A stretch of DNA of 64,000 nt from a virus: the IMG/VR virus record IMGVR_UViG_2846363972_000001, positions 4,643 to 68,642 of that record. One strand, 5' to 3'. The notes under the pieces are model-generated. The model had not been told where the DNA came from. It did no database searches and saw only the letters and a program-made list of their open reading frames with translations. The position numbers and the translations under genes were made by a program. Below are positions 8,192 through 52,938 of this stretch, piece by piece (positions within the stretch are counted from its first letter, which is position 1; each line of letters starts with the position of its first letter).

Positions 8192-9028
8192 TTAACTTAA
8201 GGCGAAACTTTCTATTTTAGCAATATCATCTTTATTAACTAATTCAATTCGTGCTTTTTTTGCATCTCTAGTTATTAGCTCAAAAGCTTTTTTTTGCCTT
8301 TCAGTTTGATCTTGAGCACTCTCAAAAGGAAACATTATTTTAGTATCCTCCTCAATAGAAGAAAAATCTCTCAATCTATTAATAACGGAAATCCATTTAT
8401 CTGATTTCTGTATAATCTCACTAGAATTATCCTGTCCAAGATATAATGGCTTGATAATTTTTCTGATTCTTTCCCCTTGTTTCTGAACCAATGGGAAATT
8501 TGCATAGTATTCATTATCATCACCTACTTTTACCTGAACAAAAGGAAATGGTGTCTGTATCTCCCGAATCATCTTTTGAATATTCTTTGTCAGAATCTCT
8601 TCACGCTGGTCTTTAGCAAAACTATGTTCCGCATAATAACTAAAAAGACGATCCAATTCTTTTTTTTCACTTTCCCCCGTTGTGACACCTATATCGCTTG
8701 TGCAAATAATTGCATCTCTGGGTCTGGCTAAATGATCTAACAATGCTCGAAAGAGTTCTGGGTCTCTGTTAGAACTTCTCTTTAAATTCTCTTTAATTCT
8801 CTCTAATTCATTAGAAAAAGAGTTCATTGCTTGTTTGAAGATTCTGGCATCGAAATATCTAAAAAATTTGCTTAAGCGCTGATATTTAAATTCTAAACTA
8901 TAATCAAAAAAACCCGTTTTCGGACAAATTAAAATAATTCCTACATTTGCAAATTCTCGGGTCTGAATATAAGGCATAAAGCGGACGACTGCAAAACGCA
9001 TTGCTAGCATATTCATGTCAGTCTCCAT
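8192..9028 (-). CDS. DUF3037-like protein
   Basis: RFAVVRFMPYIQTREFANVGIIL signature N-terminus. Confidence 0.85.
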   Translation of the reverse strand: METDMNMLAMRFAVVRFMPYIQTREFANVGIILICPKTGFFDYSLEFKYQRLSKFFRYFDARIFKQAMNSFSNELERIKENLKRSSNRDPELFRALLDHLARPRDAIICTSDIGVTTGESEKKELDRLFSYYAEHSFAKDQREEILTKNIQKMIREIQTPFPFVQVKVGDDNEYYANFPLVQKQGERIRKIIKPLYLGQDNSSEIIQKSDKWISVINRLRDFSSIEEDTKIMFPFESAQDQTERQKKAFELITRDAKKARIELVNKDDIAKIESFALS

Positions 9029-9737
9029 AATTGTCCATTATTTAATCTATTCAATGTATCAAAAGAAAATTGAAAATTATATTCTGCTTTCAAATCTCTT
9101 TCGTTATTCAACCATTCCCATTCAGGAGGTAAATTATTGCATGCATCATGATATGCAGGCAATGCAGGGTTTAGAAAATCAATTAGCTTAGATTGTAAAT
9201 CATAATCCGAAATTATATTTTGCATAGCATTTCTAAAGATATGATTTTCTAAAAATTCGCTACCAGTCAGCTTTGAATCAAAAGCTAAATTATGATCAAT
9301 AACCACTAATTCTTGACTTAATGGCTGAAAAAGTAGGTTTGAATTTCCTCGTGTTCGATCGCCATTTTTTATAAGCCAATCAAAAGCAACAATTTTTAGC
9401 TGAATACCAAAAGGGATTTTTTAATGTTTGCTTCTTCAAAAATAATTACATCATGCACAGTTTGCGAACCAAAACAACATCCTAATCCTATTTTTTTCTG
9501 TTTGTCTGATAATTCTTCAAAAAGATATGATGGCACATTTAACAAACTAAATTTTGCTATTGGTAGTTGAATAGCAGCGGCCATATTTGCACATAACCAC
9601 TCATTAATCTGACTAGCTCTAGTCGATCGTAAACCTTTTGCATAATATTCAGTGTCGTCTTCAGCTATACACCGGTACGGCTCAGACATCCCTTGATCAG
9701 AAATATCTGTAATAGTTTTTATTATCTTAGCAGACAA
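9013..9737 (-). pseudogene. HipA-like kinase, frameshifted in an A6 run at about 9416-9422
   Basis: QGMSEPYRC..YYAKG, INEW; one added A restores IPFGIQLKIVAFDWLIKNGDRTRGNSNLL...VVIDHNLAFD. Confidence 0.85.
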
Positions 9738-9861
9738 ATTCTAACCTCCGAGCCTTATTATTAAGCTTTACTGTAATTATATATTAAATTAACTAAGATT
9801 TCAGCTTATTGTAAAATCCATTTTTCAATATTGGAAACAAGCACATGGCTGGCTTGTTTTG

Positions 9862-10146
9862 TTAGATGGATAATGCTGTATTCAGTGGAACTACATCAGC
9901 ATGTGATTTCTGGCTAGCTTTCCATAAATCATAATTTACCTGCATATTGAGCCAGAATTGCGGGCTGGTATTCAATAAGATGGATAACCTTACTGCCATA
10001 TCCGCACTAATTCCGGTTTTCCCGTTAATGATTCTAGAAAGAGCCGCCCGCGTCACTCCTAAATGTTTAGCGGCTGTACTAATGCTGGTATCACCTAAAT
10101 ATTCTTTTAAAACTTCACCTGCATGGCAAGGGTTGTGCATACTCAT
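9862..10146 (-). CDS. higA: HigA antitoxin
   Basis: MHNPCHAGEVL, GISADMAVRL, FWLNMQ..YDL. Confidence 0.92.
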   Translation of the reverse strand: MSMHNPCHAGEVLKEYLGDTSISTAAKHLGVTRAALSRIINGKTGISADMAVRLSILLNTSPQFWLNMQVNYDLWKASQKSHADVVPLNTALSI

Positions 10147-10158
10147 ACGCTTAACCTC

Positions 10159-10437
10159 CTAATGATAATCTTGGTAATCTACTATTTCAGCGTCATTTCC
10201 ATTAAATTTAAAAGTTAAACGCCAATTACCGTTTACAGTAACCGCCCAATGTCCCTGCAAATTACCTTTTAACTGGTGCAATTTCCAACTAGGCGCATTC
10301 ATATCTTGAGGCTGTGCAGCAGCATCCAGAGCAGTTAATAAAACCCTTAACTTGGTGCTATGTGCAGCCTGAATGCCTGCTTTGCTTCCTGTACGATAAA
10401 ATTGCTCAAGTCCTTTGTGGTTAAAACTTTTTATCAT
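10159..10437 (-). CDS. higB: HigB toxin (start corrected to MIKSFNHKGL)
   Basis: MIKSF.HKGL, LHQLKGNLQGHWAVTVNGNWRLTF, DYQDYH. Confidence 0.92.
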   Translation of the reverse strand: MIKSFNHKGLEQFYRTGSKAGIQAAHSTKLRVLLTALDAAAQPQDMNAPSWKLHQLKGNLQGHWAVTVNGNWRLTFKFNGNDAEIVDYQDYH

Positions 10438-10533
10438 AGCTGCCTCTATAGTGTATAGCATAAATATACACAAAGCCCAGATATTTTGCTATAAATAAAA
10501 CCACTCCGTAGAGTGGTTTTATTGTGATTACAA

Positions 10534-11315
10534 TCAAATAATAATTTTAGCATGCAGCTCTTCAATCGGGCGATCTAACCTTGAGCTGTCGCATTCTCCA
10601 TATATTACCCTCATGCGTTTTGCCAGCTCCATCAGATACTCTGCCTGCTGCTTTGTCTGTATCAGCAGTTTTTTAAACACATCAGCCTTGATACAGTTAT
10701 AACCGTTGATATTCTCTGCATATGTAACTCTGTTATTTTTGACAATTACCAGCCAGCGTCCGTCTGTATTGATAGTGCGCAAAACATTGTTTTCTACAAC
10801 AGCAGATTTAAACATATCAGGCGCATTCGGTATGCTTTCCAAGTATTTCAGTGCAGCGGTGTAATGTTCAACCGGCATGGCTCTGTAACTGTCGATGTTC
10901 AGATAGGTATGCAAACCAGCATATATTTTCTGATACGGCTCGCCTGTTCGCTGGCTGCGCTCTTCTACTGCGCGTTGTATTGTGTCTGCCTGTTCTTTAT
11001 TGATTAGGTGGCTGATGGCTTTATGCTGTATTCCTATAAATCGCTCACGCTCACATTGAATAAAATATTTTCATACCTGACGACCTACCTCAGTTTTTTC
11101 TACCATCGCCAGTTCTTTAGCCATGTCTAAAATTAGATGGTATTCAATTTTGTTTTGTCCACCTCGTTTAGAATTCTTCCTATTAGATGAATTACTTAGA
11201 TCGCTCACCAAATTTGGCAAGCGAATAAAATCTACACCTTCAACGAATCCGTACTCTTCAATTCTTCCTTTAATCCAATTTGATAAGTTCCGAACAACAG
11301 TGTAATCACATGTAT
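10534..11315 (-). pseudogene. AntA/AntB-type antirepressor, 5' truncated, internal TGA at 11071-11073
   Basis: NWIKGRIEEYGF.EGVDF, ILDMAKELAMVE, GRQV*KYFIQCER; in frame with 10534-10914. Confidence 0.85.
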
Positions 11316-11836
11316 TACAACAGATCACATTTAAGTGCTAGATGTTGTGTAAAGAAATTTCCCCATTTGTATATATCAGCAATTTTACAATCACCATCTT
11401 TTTGACATCTTACCAAATAAGTAACAGTACCTTCTACATCCGTCTTTTTGGTTGCACCTACTGTTACTTGAACCATGTTTTCACTTGGCTCAGAAAACGT
11501 TAATTTAGCAGAAGGATCTAGATATAGACCCATCCATATAAATAGATAATAAAAATAATTACAATCTCTGCGTAGTCCGAGCGGTGTCTCATCTAAGCTC
11601 TTTTCTTTGGTATATATAGAATATAGTCTTTTTATATTATCATCCAGATATTTTGAAAAAAAGGAGTAATGATCTTTAATAGTTCTATAATCTGATTTGT
11701 TATCTTTTGTTTCGTCTGCTTTTAATTTAGATATATTTGAATCATACATCCCCTTTATAAATTGTAATTGTGGACTTTCCGCATATGCACATGCACTAAT
11801 AAACAAACCTAATAAGACAAAAAGAATTTTTTTCAT
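11315..11836 (-). CDS. Periplasmic DUF3828-like protein, paralogue 3 (most divergent)
   Basis: Signal peptide ending AYA-ESP; CQKDGDCKI motif shared with 11919 and 13949. Confidence 0.7.
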   Translation of the reverse strand: MKKILFVLLGLFISACAYAESPQLQFIKGMYDSNISKLKADETKDNKSDYRTIKDHYSFFSKYLDDNIKRLYSIYTKEKSLDETPLGLRRDCNYFYYLFIWMGLYLDPSAKLTFSEPSENMVQVTVGATKKTDVEGTVTYLVRCQKDGDCKIADIYKWGNFFTQHLALKCDLL

Positions 11837-11880
11837 TTTTTCTTTCTGATAAAAAATTTCAAAATATTTATTTAGCTAAG

Positions 11881-11919
11881 TTATGTTATTGAAACTCCAA
11901 ACTGGTTAAATAAATAGTT
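11881..11919 (-). repeat. Degenerate copy of TMP 3' end (NYLFNQFGVSIT*)
   Basis: Compare TMP terminus NYMFNQLGVSMT*; the following 44-bp spacer nearly matches 14477-14520. Confidence 0.85.
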
Positions 11920-12416
11920 TATTTATTTCGATGTTTTTTGATTTCGGTGCGATAAAAATCATCAAGACATTTAGACATTTTTTTGGTAAAAGGTTTTCCC
12001 CTTTCAAATATTTCGGTAATTTTGCAATCCCCGTCTTTTTGACATTTAACCTGATAAGTAACTGAACGCTGCTTCAAGTCTTTGGTTGCACCTATTGTTA
12101 CTTTAACCCTACCTGTGCTTGGTTCGGTAAATGTTAGCTTGGCCTTTGGATTTAACTCATTCACCTGCCATAAAACATCATAATCAATACAAGCTATACC
12201 CTCAGTTGCCTCTCCGTATTCATCATTTCTATCGTATAATTTTCTGATGTTGCTATCAAAATATTTTACATAGGAATCATAATCATAATTTGTTTCTCTG
12301 GTCTCAAGCTTTACGCTTTCTTTGTACATTCTTTTTATGTACTGCACTTGAGGGCTTTCAGCAAAAACGTCTGAACTGATACATAATCCCAAAACAGCAA
12401 GTAATAGTTTTTTCAT
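11919..12416 (-). CDS. Periplasmic DUF3828-like protein, paralogue 2
   Basis: Signal peptide ending VFA-ESP; ACIDYDVLWQ; last 17 aa identical to paralogue 1. Confidence 0.72.
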   Translation of the reverse strand: MKKLLLAVLGLCISSDVFAESPQVQYIKRMYKESVKLETRETNYDYDSYVKYFDSNIRKLYDRNDEYGEATEGIACIDYDVLWQVNELNPKAKLTFTEPSTGRVKVTIGATKDLKQRSVTYQVKCQKDGDCKITEIFERGKPFTKKMSKCLDDFYRTEIKKHRNK

Positions 12417-12518
12417 ATAACAGAACTTTCAAGTTAATTAAATATATAATTGTTTATTTTCTAAATCGCACGCTGTCGATTGTGTACAGCATGGCTGTTG
12501 AAACAATTAATTTCTTAA

Positions 12519-12640
12519 TCATGTCATCAATACTCTAAACTGATTAAAAATATAGTTTTGTGTTTCTTTCATCGCGACCATAGTATTCAAACTAACAGTA
12601 TTTGATAAATATTTAACATTTATGCTTTTATATTAACCAC
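12519..12640 (-). repeat. Degenerate copy of the last ~40 codons of the TMP
   Basis: VVNIKSINVKYLSNTVSLNTMVAMKETQNYIFNQFRVLMT* vs VNVNIPNMNVNTSSNTVSGNTVAAIKETQNYMFNQLGVSMT*. Confidence 0.9.
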
Positions 12641-12644
12641 AACA

Positions 12645-12683
12645 TTGCAACGTTCTTTTCCGAACACTTTGGCTACAAATTCA
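12645..12683 (-). pseudogene. Rha N-terminal remnant
   Basis: SEFVAKVFGKERCNVV matches SEFVAKAFGKKHCNVL in 53836-54576. Confidence 0.65.
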
Positions 12684-12803
12684 CTATTTGATAGCACTGA
12701 TAATCTCAGGCAATCTCCATGCAATTATAATCATCAGAATAATTAACGCAGCCGTCCACATGGTTTTACGTAATTCTTTGGGTGTGAAATTAATAGCTTC
12801 CAT
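12684..12803 (-). CDS. 39-aa single-TM peptide, copy 1
   Basis: MEAINFTPKELRKTMWTAALIILMIIIAWRLPEIISAIK; RBS AAGGAG; second copy at 55049-55168. Confidence 0.7.
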   Translation of the reverse strand: MEAINFTPKELRKTMWTAALIILMIIIAWRLPEIISAIK

Positions 12804-12867
12804 ATGCACTCCTTGAATTAAAAAAATCACTCCGAAAAGTGGTTTTGATTGCGTAACAGAATCAAGA

Positions 12868-13809
12868 TTAAAGTTTATATCCCTCAAGCTCTTTGGTTTT
12901 GGCTTTTATCAGCTTTATTCTACAGTTAAACCGGTTAATTTCTGTCTGCACCTCCGTATCAGCCGGCTTTTCTGAATTGCATTCATTATCCGCACTCTTA
13001 GTCCAACTTTTAAGGTTTGAGCTTAACTGATCTCTAATTGATTCTGGTATAGCATCCCATGTTGTTTCTAGTGTTTTTATTGAATCATCTGCTTCTTGCT
13101 TTAATTTCTGTAGCTTTGCTTCTTTTACGTTGGCATAAACTTGATCCTGCTGTGCTTGAAGTTCTGAAATACGGCTACGCGTCAATTCAGTCTCACAGTT
13201 TAAATATGCTATTTGGTTTTCTTCAGGTGAGGAGTACGCATTAGATTGACACTGTTTTTTCTTATCACGATTCCAAATGACTTGTTGAGATTTTAAATAA
13301 TTTCGTACATCTACATCCATATTCTTCCATAAAGTATTTATTTCGTTATTCACTGCCGTATTTTCAAGTTTTGCACTTTGTAATAAAGCTTGAATATCTT
13401 CCTGAGATGTATTTTGATTATCTGTATTAGCAACTGTCTGCGTGTTATTTGATACTGGAGTATTTTCAGTCGTTTTTTTGTTACTTGAGCATGTTTCTAA
13501 CAATACACCAACCACCACAAAAAAACCAATCGTTGCCAAGATGCTTTTTAAACAGCCGCCATTTTTGGCTACAGCAGTCGCGCTAGATGATGCAGCCGCA
13601 GATGCACTTTGATTAATGATAATCTGCGGCTTTGTCTCAGTTGGCTTTGTTTGAGCTGGATCACCATACCCATTATTATAGGTAGATGTATTACGGGCTT
13701 GGTTTAGTAATAAAGCTTTGTGTTCTTCATACTCTTCCTGAGTTATTGCCCCTTTTTCCAGTAATTCATACAAGCGTGTAAGTTCATTTGTTAATGATGG
13801 TTTAGACAT
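12868..13809 (-). CDS. SHOCT + TM + two LprI (DUF1311)-like repeats
   Basis: ELTRLYELLEKGAITQEEYEEHKALLL (SHOCT); QQVIW..DKKKQC...C...LTRSRISEL pattern occurs twice. Confidence 0.7.
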   Translation of the reverse strand: MSKPSLTNELTRLYELLEKGAITQEEYEEHKALLLNQARNTSTYNNGYGDPAQTKPTETKPQIIINQSASAAASSSATAVAKNGGCLKSILATIGFFVVVGVLLETCSSNKKTTENTPVSNNTQTVANTDNQNTSQEDIQALLQSAKLENTAVNNEINTLWKNMDVDVRNYLKSQQVIWNRDKKKQCQSNAYSSPEENQIAYLNCETELTRSRISELQAQQDQVYANVKEAKLQKLKQEADDSIKTLETTWDAIPESIRDQLSSNLKSWTKSADNECNSEKPADTEVQTEINRFNCRIKLIKAKTKELEGYKL

Positions 13810-13919
13810 AAAAAATCCTTATGCAGTATCAAAGTTTTTATCTAAGTTACTACAAACAAATCAAGATGAACAAAACCTCAAACATGCTATACCGGATAAA
13901 ACAGATTTCTTCATGTTCT

Positions 13920-13949
13920 TCAAATTCCAAGCTGGTTAATCATATAGTT
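13920..13949 (-). repeat. Degenerate copy of TMP 3' end (NYMINQLGI*)
   Basis: Abuts the stop of paralogue 1, as 11881-11919 abuts the stop of paralogue 2. Confidence 0.75.
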
Positions 13950-14476
13950 TATTTATTTCGATGCTTTTTGATTTCAGTGCGATAAAAATCATCAAGACAC
14001 TTAGACATTTCTTTAGTAAAAGGTTTTCCCCATTCAAATATTTCAGTAATTTTGCAATCCCCGTCTTTTTGACATTTAACCTGATAAGTAACAGAACGCT
14101 GCTCCATGCCTCTGGTTGCACCTATTGTTACTTTAACTCTACCTTCACTTGGCTCAGAAAACGTTAATTTAGCAAAAGGATTCATGTCTTGCCCTTGCCA
14201 TAAAACATTATGATCCAGACAGGCTATGTCTCCGCTTATTTCCTGATATTCATTATTTCTTGCATATAGTTTTTTTATATTCTCATCGAGATATTCTAAA
14301 AAAAAAGATTCATCAACATCTTGATAAATATTTAAAGCACTATCTTTTGTTATACCTCCTTTTAATAGAGATGCATTTAAATCATACATCCCCTTTATGT
14401 ACTGTACTTGAGGGCTTTCCGCATTTGCACATGCGCCAATAAATAAACCTAATAAGACAAAAAGTATTTTTTTCAT
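13949..14476 (-). CDS. Periplasmic DUF3828-like protein, paralogue 1 (44 bp after TMP stop)
   Basis: Signal peptide ending ANA-ESP; ACLDHNVLWQGQD; VTYQVKCQKDGDCKITEI. Confidence 0.75.
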   Translation of the reverse strand: MKKILFVLLGLFIGACANAESPQVQYIKGMYDLNASLLKGGITKDSALNIYQDVDESFFLEYLDENIKKLYARNNEYQEISGDIACLDHNVLWQGQDMNPFAKLTFSEPSEGRVKVTIGATRGMEQRSVTYQVKCQKDGDCKITEIFEWGKPFTKEMSKCLDDFYRTEIKKHRNK

Positions 14477-14520
14477 TTTTTTCTTTCTGATAAAAATTTC
14501 AAAATATTTATTTAACTAAG

Positions 14521-17196
14521 TTATGTCATCGATACCCCAAGTTGATTAAACATATAGTTTTGTGTTTCTTTTATCGCCGCAACAGTATTTCCACTAACAG
14601 TATTTGATGAAGTGTTAACATTCATATTTGGTATATTAACATTAACATATTTTCTATTGTCTGTATGTGTTGCTGTATTACTTCCAGCTAACTGATTGCT
14701 TTGGCTAACTCTTTTTGATATTCGATTTGCGTTATACGCCATTTCCATATTAGCGGTCTGTTTAAAAAAAGCATCCCGTCTGTCATGCCCGCTCTTGTAT
14801 TTTGGGTCATCCTGTCGCCAGATAATATAATTACCTCCTAATATTTTGTGTCCTTTATCGTATGCGACATTCGGATTATCCAAAAATTCTTTTTTGGTTT
14901 TGGAGTACGCAGGGTTATTGGATATTTCAGACAGCATATACTTAACCATTTCATCAAGCGAAGCTTTTGATCTGGTTATTTTTCCGTTTTTATATAAACC
15001 CTTTGCTGTTAATTCCGCAATCAGCTTTTTAGCCCGAATTCCCTGCCAAGAAATAAGTCCAACATTTGTTGCACCATTTTTCGGGTCTGTATGCGAACCA
15101 AAAAGAAAATCCGGATTAAATGAATTTTCCCGACCAATCTCAGCAGTCATTATTCTTGCTTGCTGTGCGGATAAACCGTGTTCACGAAGAGATGCATAGA
15201 TTTGCTGAGCATAATTCATATTTCCTTTTACAGGTACACTGGTTGCCGTTTTCTTCTGGTTTGGTGTTTCTGATGATTTCATACGCGCGATGGTGGGAAC
15301 TGATACACCATTTACGATATTTTTATATGAAACATCATTGGTTGCAGCAGTATTGCCTCTGGTATTTTTTTGAACAAAGTCTGATACCCAATATCGACCA
15401 TTCCAGATGGCTACATGCCCAGCTTTGGCGTTCTGTCCAAATCCAGCTGGGATAGACATAACATCTCCAATTTGTGGAACATAATCCTTACTATAGGGAA
15501 TACTCTGGAACTTGCCAGTAGCAATCAAATTCTTCGCCACATCTTTACCATGTCCCCACGCTTTAATTCCTTGCTTCCTGAAGGATTCGTTTACATAGTA
15601 CGCACATTCGCTGTTACTTTTAGGCAATGCATGTTTTGTTGCGTAATCCGCTGCTTTCACTGCTGTATCCGCAGGCGTACTGTTAGAAGCGCCGTTAGAA
15701 GCACCTTTCTTTCCAATCACAATGGGCTTGGTTGGTGGTGTATAAGAGCCGTTTACTTCTTCATACGTTTTGCCTCCGTGAAATAAACGGTACGCGCTTT
15801 CACCGATGAAGCCCGCTACATCTTCTTTCTTTTCACCCATTGCATCAGCAATTATGCCTGTTGCAATATCAGAATAATTGTCAATCATCTGTTTGGCTTG
15901 CTTAGCCGCACCGGTAAAATCGCCGCGCACCAGTTTACCTAGAATTTCAGCATAACCTTTCAGGGTAGGAATGGTGTTATTTTTTACGGCATCAACCAGA
16001 TTACCAAATGCAGCGCACAAAGTATCAACGGACATTTTGCTGTCTTTAATACCGGCACTGAATGAACTCCAGTCAAACAGAGATTTACCGCCCTTAGCCC
16101 AAGTGTCGTAATCGTCGTACAGGAGTACAAAAGCACCTGCCAGAGCAGTTACCGCAGCAATAACCGGATTAATCGCGATTCCAAGGGCCCCCATAAGGCG
16201 GATTAACGGCGTAAACGGAGCAATAAACGCCAGCAGTGCACGTCCGGCACTAAGTAAGGTAGGAATCAGCAGCATACCGATTACAATAGCTGCGGTCTGG
16301 AATACCGCCTTAACAACCTTTTCATGCCGTTGCAGAAACTCAAAGAAGCTGTTTACTACCTTAATCAGAGTAAGCAGTATCGGCGTTAATGCATCACCCA
16401 CCAACTGCTTCATGCTTTGCCAGTGTGCGCTCAATATCGCCTGCTGTTTGGTCAATTCGCGACTGCGGACAATGGCTTCCCCGTCTGAGTGATACATTCT
16501 TTTCTGAATATCCAGAATTTCCTGTAACTCTTTGCGACCAGAAATTAAGGCGTTGATTGTGCCGTCATCAAAGCCCATTTTTTTACCGATTGTATAAGCC
16601 TGTTCCTTTGGCATTTTCTGGAATGAATCAGCCAGATCAAGCATTACATCATCCAGCTTGCGAACCTTACCGGCATCATCAACAACACTGACGCCCAAGG
16701 CATTGAAATAAGGCAGCATGCTGGTGTCACCAAACATTACCAGCCCGTTCATAGCCTGTTCAATGCCGGTTAAAGAGGCTGTCATACCCTGCGCACTGCC
16801 ACCGAAAGCACCTGCCGCATTCTGCCAGTCTGTAATACTCGCGGTGGCCATACCTAGCTGACCGGAAAGCTTTGACACTTCCATATTGGCATGCGCAGCA
16901 TCATTAGCCAGTTTAAACAGCCCTGTTGAGCCGATGATTAAAGCAAAAAATCCGGTTAGCTCCTTAGTTACTTTTGCAATGGCCTGACCGAATTTTGCTG
17001 TCTGTTCGATAGAGGAATGATATTTCTTGGCTAGTTCCTCGTTAGCCTTTCCGGCCTGCTTTGAGGCTTTTTCGGTTTTATCCAGAGACTTTTCGAGTGC
17101 CTGATTTTTCTTTTCTGCCTTAACTGCCTGCGCAGCAAATTTAGACGTATCAAGCATCAGCTCGACAAGTATTTGTTCAACTATATTCGTTGTCAT
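14521..17196 (-). CDS. Tape measure protein with C-terminal CHAP/NlpC-like amidase and tail-lysozyme domains
   Basis: Helical N-terminus; ECAYYV..GDV..GHVAIWNG..WVSDFVQ (~15330-15680); GLSAQQARIMTAEIGRENSFNP..GLISWQG (~14770-15220). Confidence 0.88.
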   Translation of the reverse strand: MTTNIVEQILVELMLDTSKFAAQAVKAEKKNQALEKSLDKTEKASKQAGKANEELAKKYHSSIEQTAKFGQAIAKVTKELTGFFALIIGSTGLFKLANDAAHANMEVSKLSGQLGMATASITDWQNAAGAFGGSAQGMTASLTGIEQAMNGLVMFGDTSMLPYFNALGVSVVDDAGKVRKLDDVMLDLADSFQKMPKEQAYTIGKKMGFDDGTINALISGRKELQEILDIQKRMYHSDGEAIVRSRELTKQQAILSAHWQSMKQLVGDALTPILLTLIKVVNSFFEFLQRHEKVVKAVFQTAAIVIGMLLIPTLLSAGRALLAFIAPFTPLIRLMGALGIAINPVIAAVTALAGAFVLLYDDYDTWAKGGKSLFDWSSFSAGIKDSKMSVDTLCAAFGNLVDAVKNNTIPTLKGYAEILGKLVRGDFTGAAKQAKQMIDNYSDIATGIIADAMGEKKEDVAGFIGESAYRLFHGGKTYEEVNGSYTPPTKPIVIGKKGASNGASNSTPADTAVKAADYATKHALPKSNSECAYYVNESFRKQGIKAWGHGKDVAKNLIATGKFQSIPYSKDYVPQIGDVMSIPAGFGQNAKAGHVAIWNGRYWVSDFVQKNTRGNTAATNDVSYKNIVNGVSVPTIARMKSSETPNQKKTATSVPVKGNMNYAQQIYASLREHGLSAQQARIMTAEIGRENSFNPDFLFGSHTDPKNGATNVGLISWQGIRAKKLIAELTAKGLYKNGKITRSKASLDEMVKYMLSEISNNPAYSKTKKEFLDNPNVAYDKGHKILGGNYIIWRQDDPKYKSGHDRRDAFFKQTANMEMAYNANRISKRVSQSNQLAGSNTATHTDNRKYVNVNIPNMNVNTSSNTVSGNTVAAIKETQNYMFNQLGVSMT

Positions 17197-18245: not shown

Positions 18246-18773
18246 TTAATCTCCTAAAACTTCAAAATTGTTTAATAAGGGCTGTAACTGCTGTATATAA
18301 GACGTTATTTTTGCCTGGTTAATTGGCTTTTCAGTTTGTCGTTTGCGTAGAATTTTGCCGGCTAGGCTCGCTGTGGCAAATGACTGTTTTTCTGCTTCTA
18401 GCGCAGCCAGCAATTTAGTCATTATTGATGTATTTAGATTATTGAGCATGGACTGCATGCGATTAAATTCTTTGATATATGCCACTTTAATCTGCATAGC
18501 CTGATCAGTGTTGTAGCCCATCACCAGCAACATAAAGCCGTCTTTGGTCATGCGATAGCTGCGCACATTTCTCCAACAAGCCCCAATTTTCTTTTTTTCC
18601 TCGTAAGCCCAAAAATGGGCGCACGCAAATTCAGGGACTTTATCCATGATTGCATCAATATCACGCAATACGTGCTTATGCTGTTTGCTAAAAACTTTAG
18701 CCACTGCCTGACTATCAGTTAGAAGAACATCATTTTGAGCAAATATTAAATTTTTAGGTAATTGAATCTGCAT
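18246..18773 (-). CDS. Rha-family regulator
   Basis: TDSQAVAKVFSKQHKHVLRDI, MTKDGFMLLVMGY, KVAYIKEFNRM. Confidence 0.88.
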   Translation of the reverse strand: MQIQLPKNLIFAQNDVLLTDSQAVAKVFSKQHKHVLRDIDAIMDKVPEFACAHFWAYEEKKKIGACWRNVRSYRMTKDGFMLLVMGYNTDQAMQIKVAYIKEFNRMQSMLNNLNTSIMTKLLAALEAEKQSFATASLAGKILRKRQTEKPINQAKITSYIQQLQPLLNNFEVLGD

Positions 18774-18866
18774 TGTTATCTTCCTAAAATGAATAAACAA
18801 AAACCCGTACATTTTGTACGGGTTTTTAGGGTGGTTTTAGGGTTGTTCCCTTATTTGATTTCAGTG

Positions 18867-20333
18867 TTATTGCACCGCGATAGAAGCCAGATTCACAGTA
18901 TGAACACTGCCGCCGTCTGCATACCAGAGCTTTAACGGCAATGATTCGCGCTGACCGCGTACTTGTGCTGAAGCTTGATTTATCAGCAGGCAGTAACCGG
19001 TTGTTTCAATCTGCCGGGCCGCGTCAAAACCGGCCTCATAATTAATCTGCGATTTCTGTGCTTCGGAAAGGTTTACTCCGCGCTGGATACCGCCAAAATT
19101 CAGCATTTCATTAATCGGGTCTTGTGCGGCTGCGCGGTGAATGGCAATACCCTCAGCGTTATACGGGATAGCTTTATAGCTGATAAGCATATTCATAAAC
19201 GCCAGTTGCAGCTGAGCGTTGAAATACACCTGATTCAGGTAAGTATCTACCCAGGCAAAATCGCCGCTTACTCTGGTATTTCTGAAAAAGATAAACCGCT
19301 CATTAGCTGTTGCCCACGCGCCATAATAGGCGTAGCCGTTGCTTTCCAGTGCCGTGGCATCTTTAAGGGCGGTGACAGAGGCGGCGATACCACTTTGCCG
19401 CTTGAATTCCATAGTCGAGCGACCGTTTCTTTCACTAAAGTTGATGGAGGCGGCATAACCGCAAGCCAGCCCTGCCTGTTCGAGTGTGCCGTAAATCGCT
19501 GTTGTTCCGGATATGGCATTTTCTTTCAGCCATGAAGCAAAGCAGTTGGTGTTATTGGCAATCAGGGCGGTTGGCTCCTGCGCATAATAAACAAACCAGT
19601 AACGGCTGTTCTGTTTGCTGTTCCACTTAGCCAGTGCTTTCAGAACATCCTGAGTAAATGCATCGCCGATGGTAGTAATAACAGCATAATTCAGGGTATA
19701 GCCTGATACACGCTCCATTACAGAATCCGGACTGTCTGCCTTAGTGGCATTATCAGCAATCGCCCCGGTATTTTCAGTTAAGCAGAGGGCTTCTGCTGCT
19801 GTTCCGCTGGCAAAGGAAATAGCCGAACCTGCACCGGCAGACGGCGAGCTGATAATAAATGCCTGTAACTGCGTATCAAAGACAACATCGTTAGTTAAAG
19901 CCTCTTTGATTTTTACCGCAGCATCACTAAAGCTTTTGGCTTTGCTCAAATCGATTGTTGCAGTGATTACCGTGCCGTCTATGGTTAGGGTTAGATCCCC
20001 TTTGATGGCTTGCAGTTCATTCAACTGCAATGATTTGACACTGGCACCAATCAGCCGTGCACTAATATCTGTCTGATTGTAACGGACGATAAACAGGGTT
20101 GCGGGCTTGATGGTTGAACCGACATAACCATCAAAATAACACTGGGCAAACTGATACTGTTCACTGTTATAACCGTATACAGTGCCTACATCGGCGGCAC
20201 TGGCATACTGATTTATCGGATACACACTGTTGTCTGACAGTACAACGGTATTTAAGTCTAGTGCATCACCGCCTGTACCGATTACCGCCGGATTGACGGT
20301 AACAATATTACTTGCAGGAATTGAAGGTAACAT
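18867..20333 (-). CDS. Tail sheath protein (DUF3383-like)
   Basis: SIPASNIVTVNPAV, FKRQSGI, WVDTYLNQ, KLWYADGGSV motifs. Confidence 0.88.
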   Translation of the reverse strand: MLPSIPASNIVTVNPAVIGTGGDALDLNTVVLSDNSVYPINQYASAADVGTVYGYNSEQYQFAQCYFDGYVGSTIKPATLFIVRYNQTDISARLIGASVKSLQLNELQAIKGDLTLTIDGTVITATIDLSKAKSFSDAAVKIKEALTNDVVFDTQLQAFIISSPSAGAGSAISFASGTAAEALCLTENTGAIADNATKADSPDSVMERVSGYTLNYAVITTIGDAFTQDVLKALAKWNSKQNSRYWFVYYAQEPTALIANNTNCFASWLKENAISGTTAIYGTLEQAGLACGYAASINFSERNGRSTMEFKRQSGIAASVTALKDATALESNGYAYYGAWATANERFIFFRNTRVSGDFAWVDTYLNQVYFNAQLQLAFMNMLISYKAIPYNAEGIAIHRAAAQDPINEMLNFGGIQRGVNLSEAQKSQINYEAGFDAARQIETTGYCLLINQASAQVRGQRESLPLKLWYADGGSVHTVNLASIAVQ

Positions 20334-49458: not shown

Positions 49459-52400
49459 TCAAGCCAGATTTTTTGCCAGATCTGCTATCATATTTTCGAA
49501 AAAGTGACGCAATGCTTTTGTAAAATTTGGATTAGCCAGCACTTCTCCCATAATTTTTTTGCCGTTATAAGAAAAATCTATTTTCAGCGTTTCTACTGAT
49601 CCGGATTTCTGTTTGGTTTCTGGTGTTCTGCTACTGGTTTCAGAAGCCATCTTGTTACTAACAAACAGATTCTGCGCTTCAATTTTTGACGCCTGCATAA
49701 GCTCAAACATTTTTCCTTTGGCATCCCCTTTTCCGTCAATTTTTAGCCCGGCAAGTCCCAGATCTTTATTGAAATCGGGCAAATTCAGCTTGCCCACAGT
49801 CAGGTTATCAACTTGCTCCTTACCGGTAAAAAAGCCGATTGCGCTACTGTCTTTTTCTTCCTGTCGTTTTTTATCCCATTCTGCCTCCTCTCTGGCGCGG
49901 GCTTCTTTGCTGAACATACTGATATTCCCGACTGATTTTGCTGTTTCAGTTAAAGAAACAGCCGCCGTATCTAATTTTTCAGCGGCTTTACGGGTCTTGT
50001 CCTGCAACTGTTTATCGCGCTCTATCTGGTCAAGATAATACTTAGCCATATTCAATTGCTCAGATGTTGCGCCCTGCTTTTTCAGGTCATAAAGCTGTTT
50101 CTGAGTATCATTCATTCCAAGCTTAGCTACCTGATCACTCAAACTTGTTAGTGTCTGTGTAATCTGTAACTGCGCCTGTAGCTGTTCTACTACCTTGTTA
50201 GTAGCCTGAGCCTGGCGAATTGTTTCTGCTGATGCATTTTTAACAGCGAGCTGAAAAGCAATTAATCCATCCTTGCCACCTGATACTTCCGCTGCCAGTT
50301 CCGCAGCCTTAGTCTTCATGTCTTGTATGTATTTAGTGTTTTCTTCGCGGTTTTTCTGCTCAGCCTCTAACGCCTTTTGATGATCATATAGCTTTTTGGT
50401 ATCTTCAACCTTTGCTTTCGCCGCTTCAACTTCAACCGCCGTAGCACCTTTCCGCGCCATTGTTTCCAAGGCTATTTGCTGTTTGGAAATTTCAATTTCC
50501 TCAGATGTCTTACCAAAGTTTTTAACTGTTTCAGCAATTCTGGTATGTGCTTCGGTTATTGATTGGCTAAGCTCGCCTATTTCAAGCTTGGTGGCTGCCG
50601 CTTTAGCTCTGGCTGTATACTCTTCAGCAGCTTTAATTGCTTCTGCATTTTGGGTTTTGGATTTAAACTGCTCCAACAACCTATCAGCATTTTCTCTAGC
50701 TAATTGCTCTTTAGATTTTCCAAGCTCATTTGCGGCTTTTTCTGTGTTTTTAGCCAGTTTTTGCAAGTTATCCTTTATATCAACAGCCTCTTTACTCAGA
50801 TCTGCTGTTTTTGGGTCTTTCTGTTTGGCTTCATATTCCTTTCGTTGCTGCTCCTTTTCTTTGGCTGCATTTTCTTCTTCATCTGTTTTCAATCTAAATA
50901 AGCCGCTAAGATGAAATTTACCAGCCGCATTATGTAACAAATCATATAAACGGGTACCTAACGTATCAACATCATTTGTAAGCCATCCAACTTTTCTTAA
51001 AAGGCTATCAAATGTATTGCTAAGCGTATTATGCGGGTCTTGATCATTAAGTAATGCATTTATAGACTTGCCGGCTTCATATACTGAAAAAGTTGCAGCA
51101 GCCGCAACGCTTGCAACCGTTGCAAACCCACCAATAGCAGTTGCACGCAATGCCGTAATAGCTATTCCTAACTGTTTTACACTATCTTTTATAGATAAAA
51201 TATTCTGAACAGCAGCACTACTTTTTATTGCACCAAGTGAAGCAGCATATACACCATTAGCCTGCGCAGCTTTTGTTGCTACACTGGCCTGTAACACCAG
51301 TGATGCAGTAAAGGCAGCCACTTCGGCAGTAGTAGCCAGCAGATATGCCGCAAGTTTTAGTCCCAGAAAGCCAACTACCGCCGTAGCAATTAAATCAATG
51401 TTATTGGCAACAGCCTGCAAAGCAGTCGTTAATATCTTAGCGGCACCGGTTGCTTCACCACTTCCTCCTATAAACATGGTTAACTGCGTTTTGATGTTTT
51501 GCAATGCCTGATCAATTGTACGGCTGGTTTTTGAAAAATCAGACTGAATCTGTGTAGATTGCTTCAGGATAGCATCAGCAAGCTGCTGTGATGTAATCTT
51601 GCCACTGCTGCCTAATGTTTTTAAGGCGCCAACAGATACGCCCATACCTTTAGCAATTGCCATCGCTAAGCCGGGCGCCTGTTCAAGAACAGAGTTAAGC
51701 TCTTCGCCGCTTAATCTGCCAGACGCCATAGCCTGCCCTAACTGGATAAGGGCATTTTCCTGAGACTGGGCACTGCCGCCACCGATTACCATAGCCTTAC
51801 TAACAAGATCAGTAATAGTGAGCAGCTTTTCACCTGATAAGCCGGTCTGATCAGTAGCCTGTGCCAGTCTCTGGTAAATAGCTGCGGTTGCGTCCAGATT
51901 CTGTCCTGTACTGCTTGAAATACGCGCTAATTCAGCCCTAACTTCTTTTAACTCTTTTTCTGAGTTAGTAACCAGCTTGATACGGTTAGTCAAAGTGGTA
52001 TAGGCATCCATCATGCCTTTAACTTCATTTATACTAAAGGCACCGATGGCATATTTAGCAATACTGGAAAAGGCATTCTTCAATTCAGGAGCTGTTGCCT
52101 TTACCTTATCTAATTCGCCTTTCAGCTTTTCTACTTCTCCGCGTACGTGCTTTACTTCCTTAGCGTTTCCGGGGACAAGCCCTATGCTAGCCATCTCTTT
52201 AGATGATACTTTTAATTGTGTAACTTCTTTCTGTAACGCTTGCAGATTCTGCGTCCATTTACTGGTAACGGCAGCATTTTGCTCAGCAGCGGCAGTCATT
52301 TTTTCAATATTTGTGCCGGCCTTTTCCTGCGATTGCAACCAGTTTTTAGTGATGGTGTTTAAAGCTTTGAATTTTTGGTTATATTCCGAGAATGCTTTAG

Positions 52401-52938
52401 TTGCTAAATTAACTTTGGTAGTTGCCTGATCAAGCAGGTTAAGTACCTTTGTATGCTCAGTTACAAAACCGGCAGAATCGCCCATTTTGATATTTACAGC
52501 CAAATCAGTTTTGATTTTAAGGTCGTCTTTAAGTTTATTAATCTCGCTACGAAACTGTTCGACCGTACCTAGTGAGGCTGTAGCGACACTAACACCAGCA
52601 AAAGCCTCAAAGGCTGATTTTGCCTGCAAAACGCTTTTACTCAGGCGTTTATATTTTTCAGATACCTTGCTTAGGCTGGTGTTACTTTTATTTAGAGCGG
52701 CAGCAGTCACATCAGTAAAAGATGCCAAACTGCTTTGATTCTTGGTTAGTCGTTTTATCTCTACTGAAGCAGTATTGATTTTTTTTGCGTAGCCGCTCAC
52801 AGTCTGCTTTATCTGATCAAACTTTATATTTAGCTGATCTGATAACTTAATTAAACGCGACTGTTCACTAGCAAACTGCACATCATCTATACGTATTACT
52901 GCGGTTAATTCTGCAATATCAGACATGATAAGCTCCAA
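49459..52938 (-). CDS. Tape measure protein, prophage 2
   Basis: 1159-aa helical protein; QLGQAMASGRLSGEELNSVLEQAPGLA tape-measure motif. Confidence 0.93.
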   Translation of the reverse strand: MELIMSDIAELTAVIRIDDVQFASEQSRLIKLSDQLNIKFDQIKQTVSGYAKKINTASVEIKRLTKNQSSLASFTDVTAAALNKSNTSLSKVSEKYKRLSKSVLQAKSAFEAFAGVSVATASLGTVEQFRSEINKLKDDLKIKTDLAVNIKMGDSAGFVTEHTKVLNLLDQATTKVNLATKAFSEYNQKFKALNTITKNWLQSQEKAGTNIEKMTAAAEQNAAVTSKWTQNLQALQKEVTQLKVSSKEMASIGLVPGNAKEVKHVRGEVEKLKGELDKVKATAPELKNAFSSIAKYAIGAFSINEVKGMMDAYTTLTNRIKLVTNSEKELKEVRAELARISSSTGQNLDATAAIYQRLAQATDQTGLSGEKLLTITDLVSKAMVIGGGSAQSQENALIQLGQAMASGRLSGEELNSVLEQAPGLAMAIAKGMGVSVGALKTLGSSGKITSQQLADAILKQSTQIQSDFSKTSRTIDQALQNIKTQLTMFIGGSGEATGAAKILTTALQAVANNIDLIATAVVGFLGLKLAAYLLATTAEVAAFTASLVLQASVATKAAQANGVYAASLGAIKSSAAVQNILSIKDSVKQLGIAITALRATAIGGFATVASVAAAATFSVYEAGKSINALLNDQDPHNTLSNTFDSLLRKVGWLTNDVDTLGTRLYDLLHNAAGKFHLSGLFRLKTDEEENAAKEKEQQRKEYEAKQKDPKTADLSKEAVDIKDNLQKLAKNTEKAANELGKSKEQLARENADRLLEQFKSKTQNAEAIKAAEEYTARAKAAATKLEIGELSQSITEAHTRIAETVKNFGKTSEEIEISKQQIALETMARKGATAVEVEAAKAKVEDTKKLYDHQKALEAEQKNREENTKYIQDMKTKAAELAAEVSGGKDGLIAFQLAVKNASAETIRQAQATNKVVEQLQAQLQITQTLTSLSDQVAKLGMNDTQKQLYDLKKQGATSEQLNMAKYYLDQIERDKQLQDKTRKAAEKLDTAAVSLTETAKSVGNISMFSKEARAREEAEWDKKRQEEKDSSAIGFFTGKEQVDNLTVGKLNLPDFNKDLGLAGLKIDGKGDAKGKMFELMQASKIEAQNLFVSNKMASETSSRTPETKQKSGSVETLKIDFSYNGKKIMGEVLANPNFTKALRHFFENMIADLAKNLA

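Follow-up and report, generated by a model that had tools for sequence, protein, structure and literature searches.

Tai3-like genes adjoin a tape measure protein with a predicted Tae3-family amidase in a Snodgrassella prophage

Results

Organization of the tape measure protein locus

The stretch of DNA analyzed here (the window, 64,000 nucleotides) comes from a Snodgrassella prophage of the bee gut, a temperate E217/Pam3-like myovirus. All genes of the locus formed by the tape measure protein (TMP) gene and the array adjoining it lie on the minus strand. The coordinates and features that a first-pass annotation had given for the TMP and the array were all confirmed. They are listed below, with the evidence for each in brackets.

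14521..17196, minus strand: TMP gene P0001, 891 aa (ORF; PHROG tape-measure match; neighbours)
15277..15684, minus strand: predicted Tae3-family Cys/His amidase domain of the TMP, aa ~505-640, C531/H594 (phmmer, Foldseek)
14737..15276, minus strand: predicted tail lysozyme-like domain of the TMP, aa ~641-820 (Pfam PF18013, Foldseek)
13949..14476, minus strand: P0002, predicted secreted protein with a DUF3828/Tai3 fold, type alpha, 175 aa (translation, AF2, PDB search)
13913..13948, minus strand: short TMP 3'-end remnant, right after the P0002 stop (direct repeat D1)
12868..13809, minus strand: P0003, SHOCT, TM helix and two LprI-like domains (Pfam)
12684..12803, minus strand: ORF of 39 codons, single-TM peptide (read from the sequence)
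12514..12623, minus strand: orphan TMP 3'-end copy of 110 nt, upstream of P0004 (tblastn, repeat D5)
11919..12416, minus strand: P0004, DUF3828-like paralogue, type beta (translation, alignments)
11883..11918, minus strand: remnant of the final ~12 TMP codons with the stop, upstream of P0005 (alignment, repeat D2)
11315..11836, minus strand: P0005, most divergent DUF3828-like protein, type gamma (translation, L011 match)

The product of P0001 matched tape-measure families of PHROG (best annotated family phrog_2276, E 8e-62). Its gene is flanked on one side by sheath, tube and chaperone genes and on the other by Dit-like, Pam3-gp18 and E217-gp41 baseplate genes, the neighbour families being DUF3383 sheath, E217_Gp32, Dit_like, Pam3_gp18 and E217_GP41. 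The prophage had been described as decaying elsewhere. When the rest of it was spot-checked, this description held for a HipA_2 gene, which is split into two ORFs, and for a truncated AntA gene, but not for the tail and baseplate genes inspected, whose reading frames are open.

Predicted hydrolase domains at the end of the TMP

The motifs ECAYYV and GHVAIW, on which the first reading of the TMP was based, are both present, as E530-C531-A-Y-Y-V and G593-H594-V-A-I-W. When the amidase domain was searched against the PDB with phmmer, the sole match was 4hz9_A (E 1.4e-7), and the alignment placed C531 and H594 of the TMP on Cys23 and His81 of that chain. The 4hz9 entry contains a Tae3-Tai3 pair, whose chain identities were taken from PMC11796386. 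Foldseek, run with a model of the domain, also returned 4hz9_A on top (E 8.5e-6, TM 0.83, rmsd 2.5). The cysteine and the histidine are invariant across 9 homologues, and Pfam CHAP matched aa 530-597 with E 3.9e-5, just below the gathering cut-off in the window copy. Sequence and model together place this domain, with its predicted papain-like (CHAP/NlpC-P60) fold and Cys-His dyad, in the Tae3 family. The suggested resemblance to Tae-type amidases of the T6SS was in this way narrowed to Tae3, the only significant solved relative in either search. Sequence and fold both show homology to Tae3 of Ralstonia pickettii (PDB 4HZ9), with the same dyad, but the domain sits inside an 891-aa TMP encoded in a tail operon, whereas Tae3 is a small T6SS cargo delivered by Hcp/VgrG.

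After the amidase, Phage_lysozyme2 (PF18013) matched TMP aa 663-775 (E 3.4e-6) just below its gathering cut-off, which is cleared in the related locus L010 (37.4 bits). In Foldseek, phi29 gp13 was matched (3csq, 3csr; prob 1.00, E 0.03-0.05). Both results agree with the lysozyme-like domain noted at first and point to a tail lysozyme of the phi29-gp13 type. A glycan-cleaving domain and a Tae3-like amidase domain also share one polypeptide in Tae17 of Acinetobacter baumannii (PMC11796386). Unlike the TMP, in which the amidase precedes the lysozyme-like domain, Tae17 is a T6SS cargo and carries a lytic transglycosylase N-terminal to its amidase.

Paralogues with a Tai3-like fold

P0002 is the signal-peptide gene announced downstream of the TMP, and it starts exactly 44 nt past the TMP stop. 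Its signal peptide ends in A-N-A/E-S; a hydrophobic N-terminal leader with an A-x-A/E end was found in every family member. Four conserved cysteines are present in P0002. The two more divergent paralogues proposed earlier proved to be P0004 (~63-67% identity) and P0005 (~51-54%). The paralogues are under purifying selection, with dN/dS values of 0.1-0.3 (0.26 for P0004 against P0002).

None of the three proteins matched PF12883 at E <= 1, and searching Pfam and the PDB with the P0002 sequence gave no direct match. Among the relatives linked by HMMER, 9 of 37 matched PF12883 (best E 2.5e-9), and the family profile matched the DUF3828 structure 3kzt (E 0.003). The AF2 model of P0002 (pLDDT 89.6) was compared with 48,161 PDB chains. 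The top chain was 4hz9_B, which is Tai3 (Z 9.8, rmsd 3.0, 111/123 residues), followed by 3kzt_B (Z 9.6) and YbjP (Z 8.9); MlaC-type lipid binders came less than 1 Z unit from the Tai3 score. In a fold search of Swiss-Prot, YqhG was on top. Tai3 is itself a DUF3828 protein (bioRxiv 10.1101/2025.03.19.644130). The DUF3828 and Tai3 relationship proposed at first was upheld by the relatives, the structure search and the literature alike, and P0002, P0004 and P0005 probably belong to DUF3828 as a divergent branch of Tai3-like fold.

No feature is better conserved in the family than a Q-D motif, present in most members and reported to be necessary for the inhibition of Tae3 (bioRxiv 10.1101/2025.03.19.644130). 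In P0002 it is intact (W-Q-G-Q-D) and lies in a long loop (aa 82-103); the corresponding residues of P0004 are W-Q-V-N-E, and the motif is absent in P0005. The locus resembles Tae3-Tai3 in that a secreted DUF3828/Tai3-fold partner, with Q-D kept in P0002, adjoins the amidase. It differs in that the partner is beyond direct detection with the Tai3 sequence, that three paralogues are stacked and that their binding to the amidase is putative.

P0003 and the TMP-end remnants

P0003 corresponds to the LprI-like gene placed further on. It matched SHOCT (E 1e-6) and, over two stretches, LprI PF07007 (26.3 bits against a gathering cut-off of 22; best stretch aa 132-217). The protein is predicted to be membrane-anchored, with its LprI domains towards the periplasm. 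In these predicted periplasmic PF07007 domains, it resembles the LprI lysozyme inhibitors of Mycobacterium tuberculosis, but its anchor consists of an N-terminal SHOCT and a TM helix instead of a lipid. Homologues with 70-99.7% identity were found in L006, L007, L009, L010, L017 and L036, and their presence is not strictly tied to the lysozyme domain of the TMP. The 39-codon ORF has a good ribosome-binding site and is kept in L006.

The units of the array are set apart by remnants of the TMP 3' end. Direct repeat D1, at the remnant after P0002, runs beyond both stops. The 110-nt orphan corresponds to the final ~35 TMP codons with the stop (tblastn on its own record, E 4.5e-7), and its repeat, D5, is 80% identical to 14516-14625. 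The remnant upstream of P0005 (repeat D2, 82% identical) is followed by the conserved 44-nt spacer and then by P0005.

Promoter-like sites showed no enrichment, and a search for terminator-like sites found none. With the genes adjacent and only the 44-nt spacer between the TMP and P0002, co-transcription with the late tail operon would be possible, and the proteins might serve the producing cell itself by neutralizing TMP hydrolase in its periplasm before programmed lysis. We consider such self-protection highly improbable. The TMP has no signal peptide, and TMPs are packed within the tail tube in the cytoplasm; moreover, most phages sharing the amidase have no such gene. In addition, in one RNA-seq run of a related strain, a contig with the TMP end and a P0003 homologue had a depth of 104, against 5-7 for the TMP-body contigs of the same run, a hint that expression of the homologue is uncoupled from the TMP body.

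Linkage and co-variation in related loci

In every locus with context (the window, L006-L017, L018-L020 and L055), the DUF3828-like gene is preceded by a TMP end or by what remains of one. The gene stands alone between the TMP and Dit in L018-L020 (37% identity). A DUF3828-like gene away from the TMP end was never found in the sampled loci.

Apart from the amidase cassette and an extra segment of the window, which carries P0002, P0003 and P0004, the window and L011 show 95-99% nucleotide identity; L011 has a single downstream gene, to which P0005 is 98-99% identical. The amidase is a hypervariable cassette, its nucleotide identity to L011 being 45-67% as compared with 95-99% elsewhere in the TMP gene. 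From the sequences, these differences in cassette and array genes may be read as an arms-race signature.

The first-pass annotation had expected the downstream gene to track tip type. The part of this that stood is the position at the TMP 3' end, absolute in the sample, together with a pattern of loop and immunity types: where a locus has just one DUF3828-like copy, type alpha accompanies short-loop amidases (L007, L008, L009, L014), beta the L010 amidase and gamma the L011 amidase. The remainder did not stand as proposed. The co-variation of amidase and partner (Mantel r 0.62, p ~0.02) was no stronger than that with the lysozyme domain (r 0.57); the L006/L007 amidases are 78% identical to that of L011, yet the adjoining partners are very different; the window amidase (type A) is nearest to L010, but its first downstream partner is alpha, not beta; and several amidase TMPs have no DUF3828-like gene (L036/L042/L046, L037/L038). 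Among 13 more distant viral loci (L047-L059), 12 were likewise without the gene. The co-variation is suggestive, not decisive.

This last result would suit unrelated cargo. The TMP/baseplate junction may be a moron hot spot, where recombination at the conserved 3' end of the TMP gene has gathered assorted small secreted proteins; those encoded by the DUF3828-like genes may leave the TMP enzymes untouched while having another envelope role, such as outer-membrane protein binding in the manner of YbjP-TolC or receptor masking. Unrelated proteins with signal peptides (DUF4431, Adhesin_E-like, two 127-aa families and a 162-aa protein) do occupy the same slot, basal relatives are without any insert, and non-immunity roles are known among DUF3828 members (bioRxiv 10.1101/2025.03.19.644130). 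Against this, Tae3 and Tai3 homologues are adjacent in three diverged phage lineages, which is unlikely by chance, the inhibition-linked Q-D motif has been kept, and near-identical phages differ exactly in the amidase cassette and the array genes. Cargo of this kind is, in our opinion, unlikely.

Two Snodgrassella genomes contain a DUF3828-like gene and the amidase nowhere. This would fit a reading of the DUF3828-like genes in general as orphan T6SS immunity morons, shielding the lysogen from Tae3-type amidase effectors of competing bee-gut bacteria; their adjacency to the TMP would then reflect a common origin or a site well suited to insertion, and superinfection exclusion would be compatible with this role. 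Stacked immunity-gene arrays are a known pattern, and the Tai3-family fold of the DUF3828-like proteins is as expected. Snodgrassella has T6SSs, and its strains compete (PMC5727410, PMC11536156). We nevertheless find this origin quite unlikely. In 13 Snodgrassella genomes, all amidase-profile matches lay inside TMP-sized ORFs, none in a free-standing Tae3-like effector. The other matches, from 176 genomes of the same family, were TMP-sized or 1,500-aa ORFs, or fragments. In the sampled loci, the DUF3828-like gene was never found apart from a TMP end.

Discussion

On the observed homologies, folds, gene order, remnants and cassette structure, we base a tentative model of superinfection exclusion by periplasmic inhibitors of tail-tip hydrolases, analogous to Spackle-gp5, which we hold to be plausible if not quite probable. 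Several observations speak against it: many amidase-bearing TMPs are without a DUF3828-like gene, two Snodgrassella genomes have that gene and no amidase, P0004 and P0005 no longer carry the Q-D motif, MlaC-type chains score close to Tai3 in the comparison with P0002, and promoter-like sites are not enriched. The TMP would end in two peptidoglycan hydrolases, a Tae3-family amidase or endopeptidase and a phi29-gp13-type lysozyme, which presumably open the wall locally at the stage of DNA injection. The lysogen would express the accessory genes lying between the TMP and baseplate genes and export their products, three secreted Tai3-fold proteins and one membrane-anchored double-LprI protein. In the periplasm, these proteins would attach to the hydrolase domains of TMPs arriving with the same or related phages and so block them, the long Q-D loop of the DUF3828 proteins possibly entering the amidase cleft as the omega-loop of Tai3 does in Tae3. 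With the incoming TMP hydrolases blocked, genome entry would then fail, which would exclude superinfection or shield kin lysogens against virions that have been released. Growth of the array may have come from recombination at the conserved 3' end of the TMP gene, with inhibitors acquired from phages with differing amidase cassettes.

Tentatively, the model can be taken further. The Tai3-like and LprI-like inhibitors and the TMP tips might constitute a polymorphic system of effectors and immunity proteins, which was taken over from the T6SS or is common to both and in which cassettes are swapped for escape. Inhibitors would be stacked by recombination at the TMP 3' end, and the lysogen would therefore exclude several tip variants simultaneously, perhaps T6SS amidases as well. 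On balance, we judge this extension somewhat unlikely.

The term candidate new system, first applied to the locus, is too strong, since the logic of superinfection exclusion is already known from T4, where the tail lysozyme gp5 is inhibited by periplasmic Spackle (gp61.3) (PMC7677548). The array is proposed to work along the same lines: a phage protein in the periplasm acts on the tail-tip peptidoglycan hydrolase of an incoming phage, and genome entry is blocked. There is no homology, and Spackle is an early gene product of a lytic phage directed at a spike lysozyme, whereas the array belongs to a temperate phage and consists of Tai3-like and LprI-like proteins with TMP-borne domains as proposed targets. 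HK97 gp15 is a prophage-encoded envelope protein that blocks DNA injection, either acting on the TMP of a superinfecting phage or working through it. The TMP is also targeted by the Ltp lipoprotein of Streptococcus thermophilus phage TP-J34 (PMC3952083). As proposed for the array, these prophage envelope proteins stop DNA injection via the TMP, but their folds are unrelated, they inhibit no enzymatic domain and they are not encoded beside a TMP hydrolase.

Should the pairing prove functional, phage entry too would be governed by the effector-immunity logic known from interbacterial weapons, and the hypervariable cassette nature of TMP hydrolase domains would be explained. The poorly understood DUF3828 family would gain a second biological role. 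In addition, a Tai3-like gene after the TMP would serve as a simple sequence marker from which to predict, in a model gut community, which temperate phages exclude one another.

Genomic context of the tape measure gene

The window forms part of a 79.8-kb IMG/VR virus record, and close homologues of the genes are found in Snodgrassella, a bee-gut betaproteobacterium. Every gene discussed is carried by the minus strand, and the region is part of a myovirus tail operon of the E217/Pam3-like type. Downstream of the sheath and Rha regulator genes, the operon continues with an E217_Gp32-like tube gene, a chaperone-sized ORF, the gene of the tape measure protein (TMP, P0001) and a low-GC island of ~6.4 kb (GC 0.33-0.38 versus ~0.45), beyond which lie the Dit-like, Pam3-gp18 plug, E217-gp41 hub and Baseplate_J genes. 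The inside of a tail operon is an odd site for a regulator such as Rha. Besides the genes of the array, the island contains an AntA fragment, a HigB/HigA pair, a split HipA_2 kinase and a DUF3037 gene. A TMP-sized ORF of 1,159 aa, unrelated to P0001, was noted at 49459-52938 (minus strand) in a second prophage of the same record.

Features of the tail operon and low-GC island
18867-20333, minus strand: DUF3383 sheath gene, first in operon order
18246-18812, minus strand: regulator gene of the Rha family (Phage_pRha, E 7e-26), an insert that separates the sheath gene from the tube gene
14521-17196, minus strand: TMP gene
8192-10473, minus strand: HigB/HigA-like toxin-antitoxin pair, split HipA_2 and DUF3037 gene, low-GC island
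9396-9737 and 9013-9306, minus strand: HipA_2 kinase in two ORFs, low-GC island

Predicted enzymes of the TMP tip

Residues 1 to ~500 of P0001 match tape-measure PHROGs. Only for residues ~513-610 of the protein is there a significant solved relative, namely 4hz9 chain A (E 1.4e-7). This chain is Tae3, a T6SS effector from Ralstonia pickettii with Cys23 and His81 as its catalytic residues (PMC11796386). C531 and H594 of P0001 align with these two residues and are invariant in nine homologous TMPs. When an AlphaFold model of residues 495-891 (of moderate confidence, pLDDT 64 overall, ~50-90 per ten-residue block in both domains) was compared with known structures by Foldseek, the three best matches were Tae3 chains (E 8.5e-6, TM by target 0.83, rmsd 2.5). 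The first-pass annotation had proposed a Tae-type amidase at this place; both searches bear this out and specify Tae3. With the same model, the second tip domain matched the phi29 gp13 tail lysozyme (probability 1.00, E 0.03-0.05), in agreement with Pfam Phage_lysozyme2, so the tip is predicted from sequence and model to have two wall hydrolases.

Upon comparison with four related loci (L006, L007, L011 and L036), the amidase domain appeared as a discrete hypervariable cassette (window 15290-15780) in TMP genes whose nucleotide identity is 95-99% elsewhere. Its most variable stretch is the loop just N-terminal of the catalytic His.

Secreted DUF3828/Tai3-like paralogues

Three paralogues, P0002 (alpha), P0004 (beta) and P0005 (gamma), are located downstream of the TMP gene. 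Their leaders end in A-x-A/E, and they share four conserved cysteines. A direct match to Pfam or to PDB sequences was obtained neither with P0002 and its close-family profile nor with P0004 and P0005. A word-indexed search returned Snodgrassella relatives only (identity at least 49%), only 43 proteins came out of an exhaustive HMMER profile search that covered 1.84 billion representatives, and a metagenome scan yielded no relatives that were confirmed. Pfam DUF3828 was matched by 9 of the 37 aligned family members (best E 2.5e-9), and the wider family profile matched 3kzt, a crystal structure of a DUF3828 protein, over 110 positions (E 0.003). The distant DUF3828 relatives P0121, P0125, P0126, P0130 and P0140 lie on short contigs or in housekeeping contexts, and their neighbourhoods were uninformative.

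The top conserved feature of the family is C-x-D-Y-D-x-x-W-x-x-Q-D. According to a preprint on YbjP, no DUF3828 protein is better characterised than Tai3, the immunity protein of Tae3, and a conserved Q-D-x motif has a part in the inhibition of Tae3 (bioRxiv 10.1101/2025.03.19.644130). The Q-D motif is intact in P0002, reads N-E in P0004 and is lost in P0005. In the AF2 model of P0002, which is confident (pLDDT 89.6), it is situated in a long loop (aa 82-103). When this model was aligned exhaustively with 48,161 PDB representatives, Tai3 (4hz9_B) ranked first (Z 9.8, rmsd 3.0, 111/123 residues), followed by 3kzt_B (Z 9.6), MlaC-type proteins (9.0-9.4) and YbjP (8.9), all tied within 1 unit. 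Foldseek of the same model against the PDB missed Tai3 and gave weak MlaC matches only. Therefore, the fold evidence leans on its agreement with the sequence links. Those links point to DUF3828 and not to MlaC, for which reason an identity as MlaC-like lipid carriers was rejected. The best fold match of P0002 in Swiss-Prot is YqhG, a DUF3828 protein. Purifying selection acts on the paralogues (dN/dS 0.1-0.3, and 0.59 on the P0005 lineage), which are therefore functional genes.

A Tai3-like protein could also defend its host against the T6SS amidases of competitors. T6SS is in use by Snodgrassella (PMC5727410, PMC11536156), which speaks for this explanation; against it, no free-standing Tae3-like effector was found in 13 Snodgrassella genomes.

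Association of the paralogues with amidase-bearing TMPs

A DUF3828-like gene follows the TMP end, or a remnant of it, in all the L006-L017 loci with usable context. It is also found downstream of the amidase-bearing TMP of a diverged phage (L055), and on three metagenomic contigs a relative with 37% identity (P0120) is the sole gene between a CHAP + Phage_lysozyme2 TMP and a Dit-like gene. The window and L011 share 95-99% nucleotide identity throughout the TMP gene and past it, except in two places: a ~500-bp amidase-domain block (45-67% identity), and a window-only segment with P0002, P0003 and P0004, identity returning to 99-100% from P0005. Thus, what sets these near-identical phages apart is exactly the enzyme cassette and the putative inhibitors.

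Three loop types were defined by the segment immediately preceding the catalytic His.

Loop types of the amidase
Type A: window, L010, L018
Type B (short loop): L006, L007, L008, L009, L014
Type C: L011, L036

In single-copy loci, type B is paired with alpha (L007, L008, L009, L014), L010 with beta and L011 with gamma. Several observations count against a strict link. The first gene downstream of the type A amidase of the window is alpha, not beta, and in L006 the same array of three genes is preceded by a type B amidase. With 78% identity between them, the amidases of L006/L007 and of L011 have very different partners, and near-identical alpha genes occur with amidases only 70% identical. Amidase and partner identities were correlated (Mantel r 0.62, p ~0.02) no better than lysozyme-domain and partner identities (r 0.57), both values being inflated by shared ancestry and the former driven partly by the outgroup. 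Although significant, the correlation was not taken as proof of pairing.

The DUF3828-like gene is absent from 12 of 13 more distant viral amidase loci, several of which are without any insert, and three Snodgrassella prophage types with the amidase hold other secreted genes in the slot (L036/L042/L046, L037/L038). Conversely, two Snodgrassella genomes have the gene after a TMP-end remnant and no amidase homologue anywhere. By this distribution, the gene is an accessory moron rather than a part of the tail machine, which fits a role of benefit to the lysogen. The same site could be a moron hot spot holding unrelated cargo, and self-protection during virion production is a further rival explanation.

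Small signal-peptide families also occupy the TMP/baseplate junction of related phages, namely DUF4431, Adhesin_E-like, two 127-aa families and a 162-aa protein (L008:5550-5963, L016:3170-4045, L036:4238-4624, L038:4393-5345, L055:6359-6778); these may be additional classes of inhibitor, or else unrelated morons. In another Snodgrassella prophage (L016:1629-6004), a short TMP with a lysozyme domain is followed by two secreted genes, a 478-aa ORF with a Glyco_hydro_19 domain and a TMP 3' end, and a DUF3828-like gene; a Tae3-like amidase was not found anywhere in this genome. In two genomes from the same bacterial family, a Tae3-like domain lies inside proteins of ~1,550 aa (L069:5591-10231, L070:5692-10419), in a context that resembles a mobile element more than a phage tail. 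The small secreted protein encoded next is not DUF3828-like, and neither locus has a DUF3828-like neighbour.

Construction and expression of the array

Upon searching the record with the TMP C-terminus, an orphan copy of its last 35 codons was detected upstream of P0004 (12522-12626); repeat analysis and alignment delimited a remnant of 110 nt with 80% identity to the genuine TMP end. Remnants of ~36 nt from the last TMP codons immediately follow the P0002 and P0004 stops, and the conserved 44-nt spacer separating P0002 from the TMP stop recurs upstream of P0005. Therefore, each unit was once a junction between a TMP end and its downstream gene in some phage, and the array grew by recombination at the conserved TMP 3' end. 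In L006, the closest relative with the three-gene array, the tail gene is probably dead because of an in-frame TMP stop 62 codons early (L006:5765-5767); the array is intact.

P0003, also in the array, consists of a SHOCT domain on the cytoplasmic side, a single TM helix and two domains of LprI type that score above the Pfam cut-off. A small ORF lies beside it:
12684-12803, minus strand: ORF of 39 codons with a strong ribosome-binding site, encoding a single-TM peptide; located between the TMP-end remnant and P0003, and conserved in L006

A simple promoter and terminator scan showed no enrichment and was uninformative. In one RNA-seq run of a related strain without a DUF3828-like gene, a 1,525-nt contig in which a TMP end is joined to a P0003 homologue and a different small gene had a depth of 104, and TMP-body contigs had depths of 5-7; contig depth is a poor measure, and the difference no more than hints at expression of the post-TMP genes apart from the late operon.

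A putative exclusion system

The class of mechanism is already known: T4 Spackle, acting on the gp5 lysozyme, established the principle of exclusion by a hydrolase inhibitor (PMC7677548), and Ltp is a known TMP-directed exclusion protein (PMC3952083). Tae3 itself is inhibited when the omega-loop of Tai3 enters its active-site cleft (PMC6099711). In a full-text literature search, no paper tied Tae3 or DUF3828 to prophages or to tape measure proteins. The use of an effector-immunity pair of the T6SS type on a phage TMP, along with partners stacked between TMP-end remnants, appears to be unreported.

The effector-immunity hypothesis for the TMP tip is sharp and cheap to test. In its most economical form, to which we give slightly less than an even chance, the secreted Tai3-like proteins would block TMP-borne Tae3-like amidases in the periplasm, the LprI-like protein would possibly inhibit the TMP lysozyme domain, and lysogens would then exclude superinfecting relatives.
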